Shown: piece by piece, positions 26,059 through 48,010 of the stretch | How positions within the stretch are numbered: position 1 is the first letter of the stretch | How the letters are laid out: the number at the start of each line of letters is the position of its first letter | DNA from: Sphingobacteriales bacterium | GTDB lineage: Bacteria; Bacteroidota; Bacteroidia; Sphingobacteriales; Sphingobacteriaceae | Reading direction: 5' to 3' | Assembly (NCBI GenBank): GCA_038209155.1 | Contig: JBBQYA010000002.1 | Coordinates: 3,862 to 67,861 of the forward strand | DNA length: 64,000 bases | Made by a program: the position numbers and the translations under genes | The notes under the pieces: generated by a model | Told to the model about the DNA's origin: nothing | Seen by the model: the letters and a program-made list of their open reading frames with translations, nothing else | The model's database searches: none

Positions 26059-26865
26059 TTGAATTCAACACAACCCATAGGTATATTTGATTCTGGTATC
26101 GGAGGCCTCACTGTCGCCAATGCAATTCATAAATTACTCCCATCGGAAAGCTTAATCTACTATGGAGATACTGCCCATTTTCCATATGGCGATAAATCTC
26201 CTGAAGCTATTAGTAAATATAGTGAAGGTGTAGCTAAATTTTTGATTTCTAAAAATTGTAAAGCAATAGTTATAGCCTGCAATACTGCGTCTAGTTTAGG
26301 ATTTGAAACGGTAAAAAAATTAGTTGGAGATTCTATTTTAGTAATTAATGTAATAGACCCTGTAATTGAATTAATAGAAAATCTTAATCATATAAATAGA
26401 GTAGGTGTGATAGCGACTAAAGGAACAATAAAATCAAAAGTATATGATACAAAACTCCTAAAAATAGACCGTGAGATACAAGTGCAAACATTAGCAACTC
26501 CATTATTAGCACCCATGATCGAGGAAGGTTTTTTTAATAATAACATTAGTAAAACAATTATTCACTCTTATTTATCGCGACCAAAATTAAAAAAAATAGA
26601 TGCCATCATACTGGCTTGTACTCATTATCCGCTCATAAAGCCTGAAATTGCAGCCTACTATAAAGCTAAAATTGAAATAATAGATAATGCTTTGGTTACA
26701 GCAGAGTATATTAAAATTAAATTAAAAGAATTAGATTTATTGAGCGATAGTAAAAATCCAAAACTTCAATTTTATGTTTCTGATTTTACCACTTCTTTTC
26801 AAAATAGTACTAAAGTTTTCTTTGAAGATAAAGTTCATTTAGAACTAAAAAATATCTGGAAATAG
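26059..26865 (+). CDS. murI: Glutamate racemase
   Basis: IGIFDSGIGGLTV, the first catalytic Cys block IACNTAS and the second LACTHYP. TTG start at 26059. Confidence 0.92.
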   Translation: MNSTQPIGIFDSGIGGLTVANAIHKLLPSESLIYYGDTAHFPYGDKSPEAISKYSEGVAKFLISKNCKAIVIACNTASSLGFETVKKLVGDSILVINVIDPVIELIENLNHINRVGVIATKGTIKSKVYDTKLLKIDREIQVQTLATPLLAPMIEEGFFNNNISKTIIHSYLSRPKLKKIDAIILACTHYPLIKPEIAAYYKAKIEIIDNALVTAEYIKIKLKELDLLSDSKNPKLQFYVSDFTTSFQNSTKVFFEDKVHLELKNIWK

Positions 26866-27150
26866 TCATGATACTCTAGACTATTTGCTGAAAAAAAATT
26901 TTAAATTACAAGAAACAATTAGACTAATTTTTCGCAATATCTAAACCTTATATCTCTAATAATAAATAAGTTTTTTTTATAATAATTTGTATTTATTATT
27001 ACGAAGTTAATAATTGGAATTTTAAATTAACATGCTGTCAAAAGTGTTACAGCGAAGATTTAATTCAGAAGTTGTATAAAATTTCTACACAATTATTTTA
27101 ATAATTTGAACTAATTTATATTCTAAAAAAAATAATTCCAAACCGAATAG

Positions 27151-27176
27151 GGGTAACAAATACTTTACTTGTCATA
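27151..27176 (+). promoter_or_regulatory. Candidate ECF-type promoter, GGGTA-N13-TTGTCATA (copy 1)
   Basis: GGGTA at 27151-55 and TTGTCATA at 27169-76. The same 13 fixed bases at the same spacing recur at 28484-28509. Confidence 0.45.
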
Positions 27177-27212
27177 CATAAAAGAAGGATAAAATTTGTG
27201 TGCGGTAAAGCA

Positions 27213-27220
27213 TAGATTTG
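27213..27220 (+). promoter_or_regulatory. Candidate -7 box (TAnnTTTG)
   Basis: TAGATTTG lies 17 nt upstream of the TTG start at 27238. Confidence 0.3.
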
Positions 27221-27237
27221 CATAAAAAATAAATCTC

Positions 27238-28428
27238 TTGCTAACTCAGGAAATAAAAGATATTCATACGAATTTTAGTTTCAGTGAGCAACTGTACAAA
27301 AGAAGTTTTAAGGATTATTATTCACCACTCTGTCAGTTTGCTTTTAACATTTTGAGCGATCAAGATGAAGCTGAAGAAATAGTTCAAAATGTTTTTTATA
27401 AATGGTGGGAAAAGCGTGAAAGTTTGGAGATTACCCAATCCATAAAGTCTTATTTGTATAAATCTGTACACAACGCAAGTCTAAATAGATTGAAACATGA
27501 AAATATAAAGGATAATTATAAACAGTATAATGCCACGCAAATAGATAACAATCCAATGTATGCAACAGAGAATCTTCACTTGAAAGAAATGGAAATGGAA
27601 TTATACAAAGCGATAGAATCATTGCCAGAACAGTGCAGAAGAGTATTTAAATTGAGTCGTTTTGAAGAATTGAAATATGCAGAAATTGCGAATCAATTAG
27701 AGATTTCGATAAAAAGAGTTGAAAACCCTCAAATAGCGGGGTCTGTAAATGTTGCTTATGGTAAAACATCAGGTTTGCAAATAGCTTCTTTAGTGAATAT
27801 AAATGCAAATGAAATCTCTGGAGCTCAAATTTCTGGCTTAGTAAACATTGCAAATAAAGTAAATAAAGGTTTTCAATTAGGTTTGGTTAATTATGCAGAT
27901 TCATCAAACTCGATTCCGATCGGTCTTTTTAGTTTTGTAAGAAAAGGTGGGTATAGGCGCCTTGAAATTGGAATAAATGAACAAGCTTTCATCAACGCTT
28001 CTCTAAAAACTGGTGTGCGTAGATTTTACACAATCTTCCAATCTGGAATTTGGTCTCAACAAACTTCTAAACCTATTTGGTCTTATGGTTTAGGAATCGG
28101 TAAAAGTGTGTTTTTTAAAAATAATTGGAATTTTGATTTTCAAGGAACTCATGCATTTGTAAATAATGGTAACTCATTAAATACAGACAATCAATTAATA
28201 AAAATTCATTTTATAGTTGAAAAGAAGTTATCTAAAAGCACGTCATTAGCTGTTGGTCCAGTTGTTAATGGTTTTTTTGAAAAAAAATTCCAAAATAATG
28301 GAAAACTAATCTCTGATTTTGTTCCTTATGATCTTAAAACTTATGATTTAATTAATAACACCGTAAAGACTTGGATTGGTTTTACAGCATCAATTCGCTT
28401 TTTTGATGTTAATGGTTTTGGTAAATAA
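27238..28428 (+). CDS. Chimeric ORF: ECF sigma-70 (regions 2 to 4, truncated in 4.2) fused in frame to a G-x-Q-[IL]-x-G-L-V-N repeat plus beta-rich domain
   Basis: Region 2 is DEAEEIVQNVFYKWWEKRE. Region 4 is LPEQCRRVFKLSRFEELKYAEIANQLEISIKRVEN. From nt 27727 come four repeats of about 16 aa (PQIAGSVNVAYGKTS, GLQIASLVNINANEIS, GAQISGLVNIANKVNK, GFQLGLVNYADSSNS). A beta-rich tail of about 170 aa follows, with no TM segment or signal peptide. The only usable start is TTG at 27238. Confidence 0.7.
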   Translation: MLTQEIKDIHTNFSFSEQLYKRSFKDYYSPLCQFAFNILSDQDEAEEIVQNVFYKWWEKRESLEITQSIKSYLYKSVHNASLNRLKHENIKDNYKQYNATQIDNNPMYATENLHLKEMEMELYKAIESLPEQCRRVFKLSRFEELKYAEIANQLEISIKRVENPQIAGSVNVAYGKTSGLQIASLVNINANEISGAQISGLVNIANKVNKGFQLGLVNYADSSNSIPIGLFSFVRKGGYRRLEIGINEQAFINASLKTGVRRFYTIFQSGIWSQQTSKPIWSYGLGIGKSVFFKNNWNFDFQGTHAFVNNGNSLNTDNQLIKIHFIVEKKLSKSTSLAVGPVVNGFFEKKFQNNGKLISDFVPYDLKTYDLINNTVKTWIGFTASIRFFDVNGFGK

Positions 28429-28483
28429 TTTTCTTCAACAACTAATTAAAATCCAATTAATAAAAAAAGTAAAATGGCAATAA

Positions 28484-28509
28484 GGGTACTCTCTTTTACA
28501 ATTGTCATA
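28484..28509 (+). promoter_or_regulatory. Candidate ECF-type promoter, GGGTA-N13-TTGTCATA (copy 2)
   Basis: GGGTA at 28484-88 and TTGTCATA at 28502-09, 20 nt upstream of the receptor ATG at 28530. No TAnnTTTG box lies in this spacer. Confidence 0.45.
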
Positions 28510-28529
28510 ATATAAAAATAAAATAAAAT

Positions 28530-30935
28530 ATGAATCGTAAAATTGCAGTTCTCATCCTAATTCTTCTTTTAGGTTTTTCAGAACAAAACAAAATCTTTGC
28601 TCAACAAAAGTTCACGGTAAGTGGCTATGTTAAAAGTAGTGCAGATGGAGAAACCATTCTTGGCGCTACAATATATACAAGAGAATTGGCCTCTATGGGT
28701 ACTTCTACCAATAATTCAGGATTCTATTCTCTTACTTTACCAAGTGGAAAATATAAATTAGTAATAAGTAGTTTAGGATTTACAACTCAACTATTAGATT
28801 TAGATTTAATACAAAACAGAGTACAAAATATTGAATTGGATGATTCGGAAACTCAATTAGGAGAGGTAATTATTACGGAAGATATAATAGATGCAAATGT
28901 ATCTTCCAATAGAATGAGCATAGAAAAATTGAGCATTCAAACTATTAAAAGTATGCCCGCTTTATTGGGTGAAGTTGATGTAATTAGAAGCATTCAACTT
29001 TTGCCTGGAGTAAGTACGGTGGGAGAGGGTGCTTCTGGTTTTAATGTACGTGGAGGAGGTGTAGATCAGAATTTAATTCTTCAAGATGAATCCATCATTT
29101 ACAATAGCTCGCATTTATTTGGATTTTTTTCTGTCTTTAATCCTGACGCTGTTAAAGATGTAACGCTGATGAAAGGTGGAATTCCAGCACAATATGGTGG
29201 CAGATTATCTTCTCTATTGGATGTTAAATTGAAAGAAGGGAACTCAAAAGAATTTGCTGGATCTGCAGGTATCGGAACGGTTAGTAGCAGATTATCGTTA
29301 GAAGCACCTATTATAAAAGATAAAAGTTCATTTATTATAGCAGCTAGAAGATCCTATGCAGATGTTTTTTTAAAACTATTACCAGATTTCAAGGATAACC
29401 AACTATATTTTTATGACTTAAGTGCGAAGTGGAATTATAATATAGATGCAAAAAATACTGTGTTTGTTTCAGGATATTTTGGAAAAGATGTTTTTCAATT
29501 CAATGATGATTTTAAATTGAATTGGGGTAATGCTACTGGAACTGTAAGGTGGAATCATGTTTTCAACCAAAAATTATTTGCCAAATTTACAGGAGTATTC
29601 TCTAATTATAATTATTTATTAGGTGTGCCATCAGGAACAGATGCTTTTGAATGGATTTCAAGCATTCAAAATCAGAATGCTAAGGCAGATTTGCAATATT
29701 TTATAAACCCAAAAAACACGTTAAATTTTGGTGGATCGGTTATTAATTATAGTTTTCAACCAGGTAAAATTTCTCCCTTAGGTAATAATAACATATTTAA
29801 CGAATATGAACTTGCTACCCAAAGGGGTTTAGAATATGCTGTTTATATTGATAATGATAGAGAATTTGGATCAAGATGGTCTGTGCAATATGGCCTTCGT
29901 CTGTCAATGTTTGATTATCGAGGTCCGTACACAACAAAAGAATATGAAGGTAAAGATGGATTAAGAAAAGATTTAGTAAAAACAAAAAAATACGGGAGTG
30001 AATCTATTGTCAAATATTGGAATCCAGAACCAAGGTTTAGTACACGTTATGTATTAAATGAGAATAGTTCGATAAAAGCTAGTTACCAAAGAATGGCTCA
30101 ATATATTCATTTAATTTCGAGTACTTCTGCTGCATCTCCACTTGATATTTGGCAACCAAGCACCACCAATATAAAACCAGAAACTGCTGATCAAGTTGCA
30201 ATTGGATATTTTAGAAATATTAAAAATAATATGTTTGAAACTTCAGTTGAGGTATATTATAAAAATTCAACCAATCAGATTGATTATATAAATGGTGCAG
30301 AAACTTTGTTGAATGAAGATTTGGAAAGTGAATTATTGTATGGAAAAGGTAGAGCTTATGGAGCTGAATTCTACATTAAAAAGAAGTCTGGTAAGCTTAA
30401 TGGTTGGGTTAGTTATACCTTGGCTAAATCTGAAAGACAAATTATTGGCTTAAATAATAATGATTGGTATAATGCTAAGTATGATCGAACTCACAACATA
30501 TCAATTGTTGGTATTTATGATTTAACCAAAAAATGGTCTTTCTCAACTTCATTTGCTTATTTAACAGGGGTTGCAACTACTTTTCCTAATTCCAGATATA
30601 CCGTTCAAGGAATCGTGATACCCGATATATCAGACGATTCTAGAAATAATTATCGAGTACCAGCTTATCATAGACTAGATTTTTCTGCCACTTTAACTCC
30701 CGAAGGAAAGCCAAATAAAAAGTATACAAGCAACTGGGTATTTTCAGTATATAATGCCTACAACCGTAGAAATGCCTTTTCTGTTTATTTTGGTCAAAAT
30801 AACGACTCCCAAAATCTTACCTATACTCAAGATCCAAATGGAACTGTAATACCAACTTCTGCTAAAACACAAGCTACTCGATTAGCTATTTTTGGATCAA
30901 TCATTCCTTCTGTTACTTATAATATTAACTTTTAA
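28530..30935 (+). CDS. TonB-dependent receptor (CarboxypepD_reg, plug, barrel; no STN signalling domain)
   Basis: Signal peptide, then FTVSGYVKSSADGETILGATIY...GFYSLTLPSGKYKLVISSLGF (CarboxypepD_reg). The plug is ...VDVIRSIQLLPGVS...GFNVRGG. The barrel ends ...VTYNINF. Confidence 0.9.
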   Translation: MNRKIAVLILILLLGFSEQNKIFAQQKFTVSGYVKSSADGETILGATIYTRELASMGTSTNNSGFYSLTLPSGKYKLVISSLGFTTQLLDLDLIQNRVQNIELDDSETQLGEVIITEDIIDANVSSNRMSIEKLSIQTIKSMPALLGEVDVIRSIQLLPGVSTVGEGASGFNVRGGGVDQNLILQDESIIYNSSHLFGFFSVFNPDAVKDVTLMKGGIPAQYGGRLSSLLDVKLKEGNSKEFAGSAGIGTVSSRLSLEAPIIKDKSSFIIAARRSYADVFLKLLPDFKDNQLYFYDLSAKWNYNIDAKNTVFVSGYFGKDVFQFNDDFKLNWGNATGTVRWNHVFNQKLFAKFTGVFSNYNYLLGVPSGTDAFEWISSIQNQNAKADLQYFINPKNTLNFGGSVINYSFQPGKISPLGNNNIFNEYELATQRGLEYAVYIDNDREFGSRWSVQYGLRLSMFDYRGPYTTKEYEGKDGLRKDLVKTKKYGSESIVKYWNPEPRFSTRYVLNENSSIKASYQRMAQYIHLISSTSAASPLDIWQPSTTNIKPETADQVAIGYFRNIKNNMFETSVEVYYKNSTNQIDYINGAETLLNEDLESELLYGKGRAYGAEFYIKKKSGKLNGWVSYTLAKSERQIIGLNNNDWYNAKYDRTHNISIVGIYDLTKKWSFSTSFAYLTGVATTFPNSRYTVQGIVIPDISDDSRNNYRVPAYHRLDFSATLTPEGKPNKKYTSNWVFSVYNAYNRRNAFSVYFGQNNDSQNLTYTQDPNGTVIPTSAKTQATRLAIFGSIIPSVTYNINF

Positions 30936-30943
30936 AAAATAAG

Positions 30944-31771
30944 ATGAAAAATTTATTTAGTAAAACACTAACAACTATACTTATTATTATTTTCTTTACC
31001 TCTTGCGAAGATGTAATTGATGTAAAATTGGATAAAGGAATTACAAAGATTAGTGTAGATGCAGAAATTACCAATTTACCTGGGCCTTATTATGTGAAAT
31101 TAACAACTACTGCCCCATATTTTGAGAATAAGGCAAATCCTCCACTTACAGGTGCATCGGTATTTATTTCTGACAATAAAGGAAATGTTGATACATTGAT
31201 TGAAACTAATAATGGAATTTACGTTACTCAATTTATTCAGGGTGAAATAGGCGTAAGTTACACATTGACCATTAAATCTGGAGGTCAAGAATATTTTGCA
31301 GAGACTAAAATAAATAGGGTTCCAAAAATTGATTCTTTATATACTGAATTTTTAGAAAATGAGATAGGATTTGATGATGGCATTTATGTTTTCACCAATA
31401 TCCAAGAACCAGAAGGTTTAGGAGATCATTTTAGATTTAGAGCTTATAGAAATGATACTCTTTTTAATAAAACATCTGACCTGTTTTATACTTCTGACAG
31501 ATTTGTTGATGGAAATTATATAGTAGATCAAGAAATAACATTCAATCCTTTTTTAAAAGGAGACAAAGCAACATTACAAATCCTATCAATTACAGAAGAT
31601 GCATACTTTTTTTATAATGAAGTAGTTAGACAAACTTCTGGTGGAGGTTTATTTTCAGATCCACCGGCAAATGTGAGAACCAATGTTTTTAATAAAAATC
31701 CTTCTGGAACCAAGGCTACAGGATATTTTTTCGGATCTGCTGTTTCTCAAAAAACAATAATTGTCCAATAA
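30944..31771 (+). CDS. DUF4249-family lipoprotein, the usual partner of this receptor class
   Basis: Lipobox FFTSCEDVIDVKLD, then ...AEITNLPGPYYVKLTTT...TGASVFISDNKGN...GIY...GVSYTLTI..GGQEY.A.T...VPKIDSL, which matches my memory of DUF4249. It starts 8 nt after the receptor. Confidence 0.75.
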   Translation: MKNLFSKTLTTILIIIFFTSCEDVIDVKLDKGITKISVDAEITNLPGPYYVKLTTTAPYFENKANPPLTGASVFISDNKGNVDTLIETNNGIYVTQFIQGEIGVSYTLTIKSGGQEYFAETKINRVPKIDSLYTEFLENEIGFDDGIYVFTNIQEPEGLGDHFRFRAYRNDTLFNKTSDLFYTSDRFVDGNYIVDQEITFNPFLKGDKATLQILSITEDAYFFYNEVVRQTSGGGLFSDPPANVRTNVFNKNPSGTKATGYFFGSAVSQKTIIVQ

Positions 31772-31785
31772 AAAAAGAATTAAAT

Positions 31786-31815
31786 AAATGCCATTTCTGA
31801 AAAGAGATGGCATTT
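31786..31815. terminator. Shared hairpin terminator between convergent genes
   Basis: 12-bp stem AAATGCCATTTC / GAGATGGCATTT with one G-U pair and loop TGAAAA. The minus-strand side is T-rich. Confidence 0.6.
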
Positions 31816-31830
31816 AAAAATTTGATTATT

Positions 31831-33009
31831 TTAATTTTTTCTTTTCATTAAATTAAAAATATATCCAAGAAAACTATTGTTAGATTCTGCTTTATCTTCT
31901 TCATTCTCAATAATCTCATCACCTTTTTTCGCTGTAGATTTTGAATCTCCGTTATCTCCAATTAAATAACCATAAGGTTTTAAATCATCTACTTCATCAA
32001 AAATAATTTTCAGTATTCCTAAAAGAGGAATAAATAAAATCATGCCGGCAACTCCCCATAATTTACCGCCGACTAATAAAGCTATAATGGTTGCAAATGA
32101 GTTTATTTTTACTTTAGAGCCAGTAATATTTGGCGTTAAGAAATTGTTTTCTAAAAACTGTGTTAAATAGCAAACCCCGAAAGTTGCTACAGCATACCAA
32201 CTATTATCTTTCATCAATAATGCCATGGCAATTGGAAATAAACTGCCAATAAGTACGCCTATATATGGTATTATGTTTAAAAAACCAGCCAAACAACCAA
32301 AAAATATCGCATGCGGAACACCAATTATTAAAAATCCAATACTATTTAATGTGGATAAAATAGCCATTACAATCAAAACCCCTGAAAGATAGGATTGAGT
32401 CACTGAGCTTGTTTTTTCTAAAATGTCGTTTGTTCGTTCGTGATTTGCAACATCAGCAATCATTAAAATAAATTTTCTAATTCGCGTTCTAAAAAAAAGA
32501 AAGAAAAAAATATAAATAATTAGAATTGCAATGGTAGCTAAAGTACCAGTAGTGGTCACTAATACTCCTTTGGCAACTACGTCCAAATTATCTGTCAATC
32601 CACTTATTTGTTCATTAAAATAAGTATTTTGTTCTTTTGCAGACATATTGGTTTGTTTCTGAATAAAAGAAGTTAATAAATCAAATTTCTCGATTGCTTT
32701 TTGTTTCAAAATGGGCAAATCTTCTGCAAAACCCATAATTTGACTAGAAAACAAAAAGATAAATCCAGCAATTACAGTTATAATAATTAAGAGACAAATA
32801 ACAATTGCTAAAGCTCTCGGAAATTTATGCTTTTCTAAAAACCTACATACTGGCAACATGAGCATTGCTAAAAGTGCAGCGAAACTTAATGGAACTATAA
32901 GACTTCCCGCATAGTATAAGCCACATACTAGTAATGTAAAGAAAAGTAAAAGCAAGGTTAATTTGAAAAGAGGTTGCTCCGTAGTAGATTTAGGTATTTC
33001 TGTATTCAT
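31831..33009 (-). CDS. AI-2E family (PerM/UPF0118) transporter
   Basis: About 8 TM segments and a conserved C-terminal core ...IPYIG..IG...P......WGVAGMILFIPLLGILK. I use the ATG at 33009 because the longer track start at 33033 is a TTG. Confidence 0.75.
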   Translation of the reverse strand: MNTEIPKSTTEQPLFKLTLLLLFFTLLVCGLYYAGSLIVPLSFAALLAMLMLPVCRFLEKHKFPRALAIVICLLIIITVIAGFIFLFSSQIMGFAEDLPILKQKAIEKFDLLTSFIQKQTNMSAKEQNTYFNEQISGLTDNLDVVAKGVLVTTTGTLATIAILIIYIFFFLFFRTRIRKFILMIADVANHERTNDILEKTSSVTQSYLSGVLIVMAILSTLNSIGFLIIGVPHAIFFGCLAGFLNIIPYIGVLIGSLFPIAMALLMKDNSWYAVATFGVCYLTQFLENNFLTPNITGSKVKINSFATIIALLVGGKLWGVAGMILFIPLLGILKIIFDEVDDLKPYGYLIGDNGDSKSTAKKGDEIIENEEDKAESNNSFLGYIFNLMKRKN

Positions 33010-43784: not shown

Positions 43785-46088
43785 TTAAAACGTCAAACTT
43801 GCTCCAATACTTGGTAGAAAAGGTAATTGGTTTTGACGCTCGTATCGTATTGCATCAAAATAAAATATATTTTCACGGTTTAGAATATTGGTAATTCCAG
43901 CAGAAAGTTCAAGTTTAGAGTATTTAGATAATTGGAAACTTTTTTTACCAGAAACATCCATTCGGATAAAATTAGGAAGTAATGCTTTATTTAATTCTGC
44001 GCTAATTACACCAATATTACCATTTTCATTTATGTAATTGGTGTTGATATTATTTCCGAAATTAATTTGTTCATACACACCTTGTGTTTGTGTAAATGGA
44101 AATCCTGATCCAAAACTGTATCTCACACTTACTTCCCAGTCCTTCTTTTCACCGAAATCATAAGTACTTAAAAAATTAATATTATGTCGTCTATCATAAA
44201 ATGGTCGATAAGTTCTTATTTCATCCCTACGAATTACTTGACCTAAAGAATAAACAAGATTGATGTATAAATTCTTTTTTCTGTAGGTTCCAGAAAAATC
44301 AATTCCTCTCGCATAACCTTGTTCTACAATGATATCTTTTCTTAAAAAGTTAGGAACAGTATCGTTTGGACCATTATCTGGATATATTTTATCTCTATTG
44401 GTATTGGTTATTTGGCTAAAATTTTTGTAATAACCTTCAATATTGATTAATAAATTGGGTAATAAATCATATTCAAATCCAGCTATTAGATGTTCTGCTT
44501 TCTGAAGTTTAGAAGTCACTTGTTGGCCAAGAAATTCTTTTTGCAAATTTTCTGTTCCGGATAAAAAACCATAGAATAAATTCACTACATCTCTATCAGA
44601 ATTTGCACTTAATAAGTTTTGAGAATAAAATCCTCCAGCAGATTTCAACCTTAATTTTTCAGTCAAAATAAATTTTGCGCCTAATCTTGGTTCAGGTGAA
44701 AATTCACTTAACGAAGCATAATAATGTGCTCGAAAACTGGGTTCAACAATTAATCTTCCTTTCTTGTATTTATAACTTATAAAACCTGCTAATTCTGTTG
44801 TAAAATCTTGCTGTTGAACAGTCAAATTAAAAGGATTGGTAAATTTAAAGTCGGTATTAAAACCCAAAACTTCAAAACCATAACGGATATCATCATCACC
44901 TAGAAAAAGGGTATAATCCATTCCTGCATTAAACCCAGAAATGGAACTAAATCTTGGTTTTCCATCACGCTCTTCCAGCGTTATTCTATAATCGGTATAC
45001 GAAAAGAATGCATTAATTAAAGAAGAAGAAGCTTCTGGAACCAAAACAAAATTCATACCTCCACCTCTTGATTTCCAATTGATTCTGGTGGCATCCGTAT
45101 AATTTACTCGATCGGTAAAGTTGAATCCAAACAGATTTACTTTACTTCCATTGTTTCCGCTAGTGGAGATTTTAGCATAAATATCGGTAAAGTTAAATGG
45201 CAAACCAGCGGTATCTACATAGCTATAAATGGTTTTAGAGGTTTGCTCTAAATAAGAGGTTTTTCCTGTTAATAAAAATGTAGTAGAAGGTTTGCCTTCT
45301 TTGTATTTGCTCAATGGTCCTTCTAATAATATTTTTGAACTAAAAGGACTTGCACCAACTTTTCCCGATAAACGGTTTTTGTTTCCATCACGAGTTGTGA
45401 TATCTAGAATAGCTGAAATTCTGCCGCCATATTTTGCTCCAAAACCTCCAGTGTATACATCCACATTTTTGATGATGTCAGTTTCAAAAACAGAAAACAA
45501 ACCTATTGAATGAAAAGGATTATAAATCGTCATTCCATCAAGAATTACTTTGTTTTGAATCGGAGATCCACCACGAATATATAGTTGACCACCTTGATCT
45601 CCAGAGAAAATTACACCTGGTATCACTTGAAGATATTGCGCCAAATCGGGTTCACTACCAATAGATGGAATTTGCATAATTTGTTTTGGAGTAATTTTGG
45701 TTACTGAAATTTGAACTTTATTCAATTGCTCTGCTCTTTCTCCAGAAATGCTCACTTCTTTTAAATTTACTTTTGTAGGTAGTAAATATATATTTTTAGA
45801 TACCCGTTCATTTGCTTTCAAAACAATTGTAAATTCGGCAGTATCAAAACCCATATTTCTAGAAACTAATCTGTAAGTCCCTGGCTTCAGTTGAGAAATA
45901 GAATAAAAGCCATTTACATCGGTAGTAGATCCAATGCTGGTTCCTTTAAGACTTACTCCACTAAAAATGATGGGTTCACCGGTTTCTTTGTCATAAACAA
46001 AACCTCTTATTTCTGAATTTTGTGCTAAAGTGCTGAACGGTAATAGAAAAAGTAAAAGAAACTGAAGGGATTTAAAAAAATTATTCAT
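43785..46088 (-). CDS. TonB-dependent receptor (CarboxypepD_reg, plug, barrel)
   Basis: IRGFVYDKETGEPIIFSGVSL...GFYSISQLKPGTYRLVSRNMGF. The plug is ...LAQYLQVIPGV...GGQLYIRGG. The barrel ends ...GASLTF. Confidence 0.9.
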   Translation of the reverse strand: MNNFFKSLQFLLLFLLPFSTLAQNSEIRGFVYDKETGEPIIFSGVSLKGTSIGSTTDVNGFYSISQLKPGTYRLVSRNMGFDTAEFTIVLKANERVSKNIYLLPTKVNLKEVSISGERAEQLNKVQISVTKITPKQIMQIPSIGSEPDLAQYLQVIPGVIFSGDQGGQLYIRGGSPIQNKVILDGMTIYNPFHSIGLFSVFETDIIKNVDVYTGGFGAKYGGRISAILDITTRDGNKNRLSGKVGASPFSSKILLEGPLSKYKEGKPSTTFLLTGKTSYLEQTSKTIYSYVDTAGLPFNFTDIYAKISTSGNNGSKVNLFGFNFTDRVNYTDATRINWKSRGGGMNFVLVPEASSSLINAFFSYTDYRITLEERDGKPRFSSISGFNAGMDYTLFLGDDDIRYGFEVLGFNTDFKFTNPFNLTVQQQDFTTELAGFISYKYKKGRLIVEPSFRAHYYASLSEFSPEPRLGAKFILTEKLRLKSAGGFYSQNLLSANSDRDVVNLFYGFLSGTENLQKEFLGQQVTSKLQKAEHLIAGFEYDLLPNLLINIEGYYKNFSQITNTNRDKIYPDNGPNDTVPNFLRKDIIVEQGYARGIDFSGTYRKKNLYINLVYSLGQVIRRDEIRTYRPFYDRRHNINFLSTYDFGEKKDWEVSVRYSFGSGFPFTQTQGVYEQINFGNNINTNYINENGNIGVISAELNKALLPNFIRMDVSGKKSFQLSKYSKLELSAGITNILNRENIFYFDAIRYERQNQLPFLPSIGASLTF

Positions 46089-47637: not shown

Positions 47638-48010
47638 AATTGGATAGGCAAATATAGAAATTTATGTGAATTCAATTTTTAAAAGAAAAATCAAACTATG
47701 CTTATATTATATTAAAATCTTTGATTTATAATTAATTTTTTCAAAAACCTGATATTTAAAATTGATATAGTTCCATCTACATTTCCTTCAATTTTTTAGC
47801 CTATATATTTTTATCTAATATTTTTACTAAAGTTTTCTGCTTAAAATATTTGTATCCAATTTTTACAACTTTAGATTTATCCTATTACAGAATCAACCTT
47901 TTGTCATATGTTGCCATTAGTGTCTTTGGTTTCCATGTATTTATTTTTATTAAATTAATACTGAAAAAGAATTTATAAAAAACAAATACTATAAATTATA
48001 AAACTAAATT

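Follow-up and report, generated by a model that had tools for sequence, protein, structure and literature searches.

Introduction

Autoregulated, group-specific promoters for sigma factors of the extracytoplasmic function (ECF) type are already well known as a kind, and the described examples include those of Escherichia coli sigma-E (GGAACTT-N16-TCAAA) and Bacillus subtilis SigW (TGAAAC-N16-CGTA) (Staron 2009; Casas-Pastor 2021, PMC7826278). The present analysis concerns two identical copies of a motif, GGGTA-N13-TTGTCATA, located in a stretch of 64,000 nucleotides (nt) from a Sphingobacteriales bacterium (GenBank assembly GCA_038209155.1, contig JBBQYA010000002.1, positions 3,862 to 67,861 of the forward strand), hereafter the window. 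One copy precedes an open reading frame (ORF) with the beginning of a FecI-like sigma gene, and the other precedes a TonB-dependent receptor/DUF4249 gene pair. As with the promoters of sigma-E and SigW, the element is bipartite, its spacer being rigid and its -10 core GT(C/A), it is conserved within a sigma subgroup, and it is found before the gene of the sigma factor itself and before neighbouring targets. It differs from them in its -35 part, TA[G/A]GGGTA, which does not contain AAC, in a regulon that is very small and local, and in a cognate sigma factor that is truncated in the source genome. The element itself is ordinary and lies within a known type of system, and the window locus is a deletion derivative of a sigma-FecR-STN module. 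The picture judged probable is that the motif pair represents ECF sigma promoters whose circuit was broken by a deletion of about 2.4 kb, so that the promoters are most likely orphaned and the receptor genes are maybe transcribed by read-through.

Among classified ECF factors, the resemblance is to ECF240 (formerly ECF10), the FecI-like group of Bacteroidetes, with which the locus shares a TIGR02985-type sigma factor, a FecR gene beside the sigma gene in relatives and a TonB receptor nearby (PMC7826278). The sigma factor fits ECF240 by genomic context only (FecR and a TonB receptor, in Bacteroidota), and no member of this group has been studied experimentally (PMC7826278). The layout of the module is also that of FecI/FecR/FecA signalling and of the ECF sigma/anti-sigma/SusC-like systems of Bacteroides, where a FecR-type membrane anti-sigma factor holds the ECF sigma factor, a periplasmic STN domain serves as signal input and the operon of an outer-membrane transporter is the output (PMC9249621). 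Unlike FecI/FecR/FecA, the relatives carry the STN domain on a separate protein, composed of repeats and a small barrel, and not on the transporter, and the window locus has neither an STN domain nor FecR. Additionally, E. coli fecIR is not known to have an ECF-type promoter of its own, unlike the sigma operon described here. The output genes resemble BT2172/BT2173 of Bacteroides thetaiotaomicron, in which a non-SusC TonB receptor is followed by a DUF4249 "lid" lipoprotein, and the papers on this pair give no account of its regulation (bioRxiv 10.1101/2023.03.17.533168, PMC11003636).

No published account of the motif was found in a search that did not extend to the supplementary per-group predicted motifs of PMC7826278, which may list it. 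Similarly, the literature searched yielded no start-site map for a member of the module and nothing on the STN/CarbopepD_reg protein. A start-site paper on F. psychrophilum gives a generic CGT-type ECF motif only, and a dCas12f/sigma-E paper was considered as a source for the motif and set aside, since it concerns a different sigma clade.

The Motif Pair and Its Conservation

Both copies were found on the + strand. Copy 1 consists of GGGTA at 27151-55 and TTGTCATA at 27169-76, in the spacer before the sigma-like ORF (27238-28428), and copy 2 of GGGTA at 28484-88 and TTGTCATA at 28502-09, in the spacer before the receptor ORF (28530-30935). The distance from the end of copy 1 to the TTG start at 27238 is 61 nt, and that from the end of copy 2 to the receptor ATG at 28530 is 20 nt. 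The first-pass annotation, which had been made from the window sequence, was thus confirmed in describing two identical copies at these places, one upstream of the sigma ORF and one upstream of the receptor operon. It had also pointed to a third, lone TTGTCATA at 47901; this site does lack a GGGTA partner, but the count of three was too low, as four such sites are present on the + strand of the window (27169, 28502, 45988 and 47901), and the one at 45988 is likewise without GGGTA.

The genome scan with mismatches that had been proposed was carried out on the source assembly (2,988,183 bp, 31.4% GC, a draft of 209 contigs scored 100% complete). The exact motif matched twice only, both times in the window, and one additional site was found when one mismatch was allowed (contig C10). 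The chance expectation for exact matches in this genome is 0.11 from base composition, with P(>=2) = 0.006, and 0.03 from the actual counts of the two halves (78 for TTGTCATA and 2236 for GGGTA). A scan of the window alone with two mismatches gave 2 matches against 1.7 expected, which is chance level and has no discriminating power.

Conservation was assessed in a comparison set of 48 orthologous sigma-FecR-STN loci drawn from the family and the class, among them the locus (L016) of a same-genus relative (G001). GGGTA-N13-TTGTCATA was found to form the core of an extended bipartite element, TA[G/A]GGGTA-N14-TGTC[A/T]TA. In the window, the -35-like element of copy 1 is TAGGGGTA (27148..27155, +), which contains GGGTA and has an identical counterpart at the equivalent place in the relative, and its -10-like element is TGTCATA (27170..27176, +), at the fixed distance of 14 nt. 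In copy 2, the -35-like element is TAAGGGTA (28481..28488, +), where the equivalent spacer of the relative has TAGGGGTA, and the -10-like TGTCATA (28503..28509, +) ends 20 nt before the receptor ATG. When a strict pattern, with one mismatch allowed in its first half, was searched over the 689 kb of orthologous loci, 62 matches were obtained, compared with a mean of 6.9 in shuffled sequence. For 60 of these 62, an ORF of 100 aa or more begins within 160 nt downstream, and nearly all of the matches are on the strand of the sigma gene. In most of the 48 loci the element is found again at an unchanged spacing and position and on the same strand, upstream of the sigma gene and ahead of a second unit, which is either a TonB receptor/DUF4249 pair or a small-barrel paralogue. 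This is the outcome of the test in orthologous loci that had been called for.

Across 60 instances, the T, A, GGG and T of the -35-like half are invariant or almost so, and the N14 spacer is fixed in length and unconserved in sequence, the distance from GGG to GTC being 20 bp from centre to centre. Where TGTC is absent, TGTA, CGTC or TGTT occupies the same position at the same spacing, and both promoters of one locus share the variant (CGTC twice in L028, TGTA twice in L025 and TGTA twice in L050), as would be expected from one shared reader with drifting specificity. The same-genus relative has exactly two matches in its whole genome, each of them at the corresponding place in its locus, and its copy at the sigma promoter is nearly identical to that of the window, where identity over the rest of the region is about 69%. 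The genes behind the motif across the loci were 26 sigma genes and 29 target genes. At the target genes, TGTC and ATG are mostly separated by only 11-30 nt, which implies very short leaders.

These observations make it well supported by comparison that the motif is an ECF-type bipartite promoter, for the sigma gene and for the receptor/DUF4249 operon: it combines -35 and -10 parts at a rigid spacing with a -10 core of the GTC/CGT type, and it stands before the sigma gene and before co-located targets in both the window and the relative. The ECF-dependent architecture proposed in the first-pass annotation is supported by the conservation of this bipartite element, by its association with genes and by the orthologous loci. 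According to the mechanism suggested, TA[G/A]GGGTA and TGTC[A/T]TA would be read as -35-like and -10-like elements, respectively, by the FecI-like ECF sigma factor (TIGR02985) encoded at the locus. Both the binding of the sigma factor to the motif and the positions of the transcription starts are deductions from sequence.

Organisation of the Intact Module and the Housekeeping-Type Box

In intact relatives, the order of the module is sigma factor, FecR anti-sigma factor and outer-membrane STN-domain protein, followed by a second unit. In the same-genus relative, the locus encodes a sigma factor of 201 aa, a FecR of 351 aa, an STN protein of 635 aa, a receptor of 801 aa and a DUF4249 protein. 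The 635-aa protein has a weak STN match in Pfam (23.3 bits, against a cut-off of 28.4), a CarbopepD_reg match slightly under the cut-off and a long C-terminal part.

A housekeeping-type -7 box of Bacteroidota, TAGATTTG (27213..27220, +), lies downstream of the ECF promoter in the sigma spacer, 18 nt before the TTG start, and is conserved in the relative. The nearest TTTG upstream of it ends just 14 nt before the box, and a canonical -33 element is not evident. No TAnnTTTG was found in the receptor spacer of the window. This contrast between the two spacers, already noted in the first-pass annotation, was borne out and proved to be general, as TAnnTTTG occurs within 110 nt after the ECF motif at 16 of 26 sigma genes versus 1 of 29 target genes. 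It is likely that in intact loci the sigma-FecR-STN operon is transcribed at a basal level by sigma-A and is subject to feedback, and that the target operon is strictly sigma-dependent. The ECF promoter and the subsequent TAnnTTTG promoter would give the sigma operon basal expression with positive feedback, and the second unit (receptor/DUF4249 at the window locus), with an ECF promoter only, would be switched on only once FecR releases the sigma factor.

The start of the sigma ORF differs in appearance between the two genomes. In the relative, the starting ATG of the longest sigma ORF and the conserved TAGATTTG box overlap (L016:1566-1595). At 27211-27240 of the window there is no ATG at the equivalent position, and a stop is present at 27223-25. 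The true sigma start in both genomes is probably the conserved TTG (27238 in the window).

A Deletion in the Window Locus

The ORF at 27238-28428 encodes 396 aa, of which residues 20-163 match TIGR02985 and the following ~230 are unrelated to it. Its first part (27238..27727, +) is the 5' remnant of a FecI-like ECF sigma gene and encodes residues 1-163, in which sigma-2 is preserved in full and sigma-4.2 breaks off after "...ISIKRVEN". This remnant scored 149.5-151.9 bits against TIGR02985 (Sig70_bacteroi1; cut-off of 126.4), covering profile positions 3-149 of 162, and it covers positions 2-45 of 54 in Sigma70_r4_2. The second part (27728..28428, +) is the 3' remnant of the STN/CarbopepD_reg gene, with the last GxQxxGxxN repeats and a small beta-barrel, and has no signal peptide. 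It is 56% identical to residues 381-635 of the STN protein of the relative, and its start falls near residue 403 of the ancestral protein, past the STN domain. In blastn comparisons, window 27112-27727 corresponds to L016 1471-2082 and window 27728-28428 to L016 4468-5168, leaving 2385 bp of the relative unmatched in the window. This length is a multiple of three, and the sigma factor is joined in frame to the STN protein's barrel end. At the junction (27727..27728), where no clear microhomology was found, the loss covers the 3' end of the sigma gene, the whole of fecR and the STN-protein gene up to about codon 402.

The part of the sigma factor that is missing comprises its last ~29 residues (from ...TVEN/HMGKALRILRNQLADY...), including a block, QMGKALxIMRxxLxDYLPL, that is nearly invariant in the family, with G, K, A, L, I, R and L each conserved at 90% or more. 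In SigH, SigW and sigma-E, the stretch aligned with this block is the second half of the sigma-4.2 recognition helix, the helix that reads the -35 element. In the AlphaFold2 model, sigma-2 is confident (predicted local distance difference test, pLDDT, of ~95), the truncated sigma-4 is of low confidence (pLDDT of 43-56, residues 141-160), and the C-terminus is all-beta (pLDDT > 90), with 8-stranded outer-membrane barrels (such as NspA, OprF-N and OmpA) as its weak best matches. As the chimera has no signal peptide, its barrel part cannot reach the outer membrane. The fusion protein was found in the source genome only, among 5.8 billion clustered proteins.

Searching the whole source genome revealed no FecR gene. 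FecR, absent beside the sigma gene in the window, is present in the relative and in all 47 other loci examined. The STN signalling domain on an outer-membrane partner was lost from the window locus with the deletion. The shortened sigma factor is the only one in the source genome above the TIGR02985 cut-off, and no second copy of the sigma gene or of the N-terminal part of the STN protein was found there.

The output genes are intact. The TonB-dependent receptor (28530..30935, +; CarbopepD_reg and Plug, no STN) is 86% identical to that of the relative, and the DUF4249 lipoprotein, a putative receptor lid (30944..31771, +), is 71% identical. The pair is recognised by the Pfam families CarbopepD_reg_2, Plug and DUF4249 and is separated by an intergenic gap of 8 nt.

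State of the Circuit

The deletion of ~2.4 kb fused the sigma factor to the STN protein's barrel end, cut the -35-reading helix and removed fecR. With this helix cut and both FecR and the STN domain gone, the switch has most likely ceased to function. Since no terminator-like site was found in 26800-32000, transcripts from the putative housekeeping promoter at 27213 may now run on into the receptor operon. We infer both the inactivity of the chimera and the read-through into the receptor gene. The suggestion of the first-pass annotation, an autoregulated sigma factor with the receptor pair as its regulon, consequently holds for the ancestral circuit and is not supported for the source genome, where the sigma factor is a deletion chimera and fecR is lost. 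With receptor and DUF4249 genes intact, promoters perfect and the frame open, the simplest reading is a recent deletion.

Two TAnnTTTG boxes, in addition to the one in the sigma spacer, were observed inside the barrel-remnant part of the chimeric ORF (27878-27885 and 27930-27937). They could be cryptic promoters, ~600 nt upstream of the receptor gene.

Several observations weigh against the view that these are ECF promoters left behind by a broken circuit. The -35-like element is without the AAC typical of most ECF promoters, and regulon prediction has been reported to be poor for FecI-like sigma factors (10.1101/2020.06.23.168245). Outside the loci, a 12-base pattern occurred at background frequency (160 matches versus 147 for the reversed control in 151 genomes), so that the short pattern alone cannot define regulons and the regulon is usually small and local. 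Both window promoters still match the consensus perfectly, and the chimera runs for 396 codons without a stop despite 31% GC, which means either that the deletion is very recent or that something is still under selection. Furthermore, the deletion is known from a draft assembly alone.

As regards the nature of the motif, a binding site for another regulator, either a repressor or an activator, was considered in place of promoter elements, given that the sigma factor is a putative reader of the motif and that the -35-like half is atypical of ECF promoters. This is very improbable, as the motif lacks symmetry, keeps one orientation towards the gene and lies at a fixed short distance from start codons, with GTC, GTA or CGTC forming a -10-type core. 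In addition, the ECF sigma factor and FecR are the only regulators conserved beside it, and a response regulator beside the locus of the relative is not conserved at the window locus. A chance coincidence, or membership in a dispersed repeat, might be suspected of a pattern that was picked post hoc and for which the two-mismatch scan of the window remained at chance level. It is, nevertheless, hardly credible: two exact copies stand against 0.03-0.11 expected, conservation of the element extends over dozens of genera, with a spacer that varies in sequence, and just two copies occur in each of the source genome and the same-genus relative. Chance and dispersed repeat were accordingly rejected on the comparative data, and dispersed repeat and RNA structure also on the grounds that there are two copies only, the spacer sequence varies and the halves are not complementary.

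As regards the deletion, the circuit might still work, with the chimera retaining activity through sigma-2 and TGTC and, without FecR, driving its own gene and the receptor constitutively. Perfect promoters, an ORF open over 396 codons, intact receptor (86%) and DUF4249 (71%) genes and a sigma-2 part modelled with a pLDDT of ~95 would all fit such activity, and in an earlier study of Bacteroides ECF systems, deletion of the anti-sigma gene reportedly activated them. However, ECF sigma factors depend strongly on -35 recognition, and the lost QMGKALxIMRxxLxDYLPL is the DNA-contacting half of the sigma-4.2 recognition helix, with a proline following the break. The appended part is an outer-membrane barrel without a signal peptide, and no other such fusion exists among the clustered proteins searched. 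A working circuit is therefore considered unlikely. It is slightly more doubtful still that a FecR-free chimera with a stranded cytoplasmic barrel remains active by reading mainly through sigma-2 and TGTC; if so, it would be a natural ECF sigma factor without a complete -35-reading helix, driving a transporter constitutively, and would account for the promoters and the long chimeric frame remaining perfect. The missing 2.4 kb might instead be an artefact of the assembly or the population, with the real chromosome intact and the promoter pair fully functional. The assembly is in 209 contigs and is the sole source for the junction, and perfect promoters with an open chimeric frame fit a spurious deletion as well as a very recent one. 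This explanation, too, has a low probability, as the junction is internal to a contig of 67.8 kb or more and has neither a repeat nor microhomology that could mislead an assembler, no FecR match was found in a genome scored 100% complete, and searches of this genome revealed no second copy of either the sigma gene or the N-terminal STN part.

Taken as ECF promoters of a module disrupted by deletion, the motif pair offers a testable consensus, TA[G/A]GGGTA-N14-TGTC[A/T]TA, for a FecI-like sigma/FecR module of Bacteroidota that is widespread and untouched by experiment, and whose outputs are indicated to be TonB receptor/DUF4249 pairs, small-barrel paralogues and DUF2807 lipoproteins. The annotation of the 396-aa "sigma factor" is corrected to that of a deletion chimera. 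The strain would be a naturally occurring knock-out for the switch that keeps the output promoters, and possibly a clean background for complementation with an intact sigma factor.

Occurrence beyond the Orthologous Loci and Further Genes behind the Motif

A blind scan for ATAGGGGTA-N13-TTGTCATA in one genome per species (185,579 species) gave at least 120 loci, and among the matches listed, 73 of 80 titles were from Bacteroidota. Sixty of 121 matches listed lie directly upstream of homologues of module genes, comprising sigma factors (31), receptors (13), barrel paralogues (8), FecR (6) and STN proteins (2). Further matches stand before genes for envelope proteins, among them DUF2807 lipoproteins, a small barrel of the outer membrane and products of a similar kind. 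DUF2807 lipoproteins of ~240 aa were observed directly behind the motif and adjoining STN-protein or receptor genes (L078:6067-6786, L087:824-1549 and L112:1937-2674), and are likely a further regulon member in Cytophagia and Flavobacteriia. In a small genome of the same family (G006; L184-L191), 8 exact copies of the motif were found, and the control gave 0. Each of the 8 is intergenic and stands 8-99 nt ahead of a gene that encodes a protein with a signal-peptide-like N-terminus, which suggests a much larger regulon in this lineage.

Among the orthologous loci, the 29 target promoters precede 22 barrel paralogues, 6 TonB receptors and 1 FecR gene. The commonest non-sigma gene behind the motif elsewhere is thus not a TonB receptor but encodes a 300-450-aa paralogue of the C-terminal part of the STN protein. 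This paralogue has the GxQxxGxxN repeats and the small barrel without an STN domain and is covered by no Pfam family; examples are L017:5015-6430, L024:2881-4120 and L033-L042, and in L033-L042 it lies ~2 kb upstream of the sigma gene.

Across the motif instances, a conserved AAA is also seen 8-10 nt after TGTC (information content of 0.9-1.25 bits; 28517-28519 in the window), which could be the start site or part of an A-rich translation-initiation region. Finally, one contig with the motif (L101, CAZNHL010000145.1), binned as "uncultured Bifidobacteriaceae", carries a Bacteroidota sigma/FecR/STN module and was probably mis-binned.

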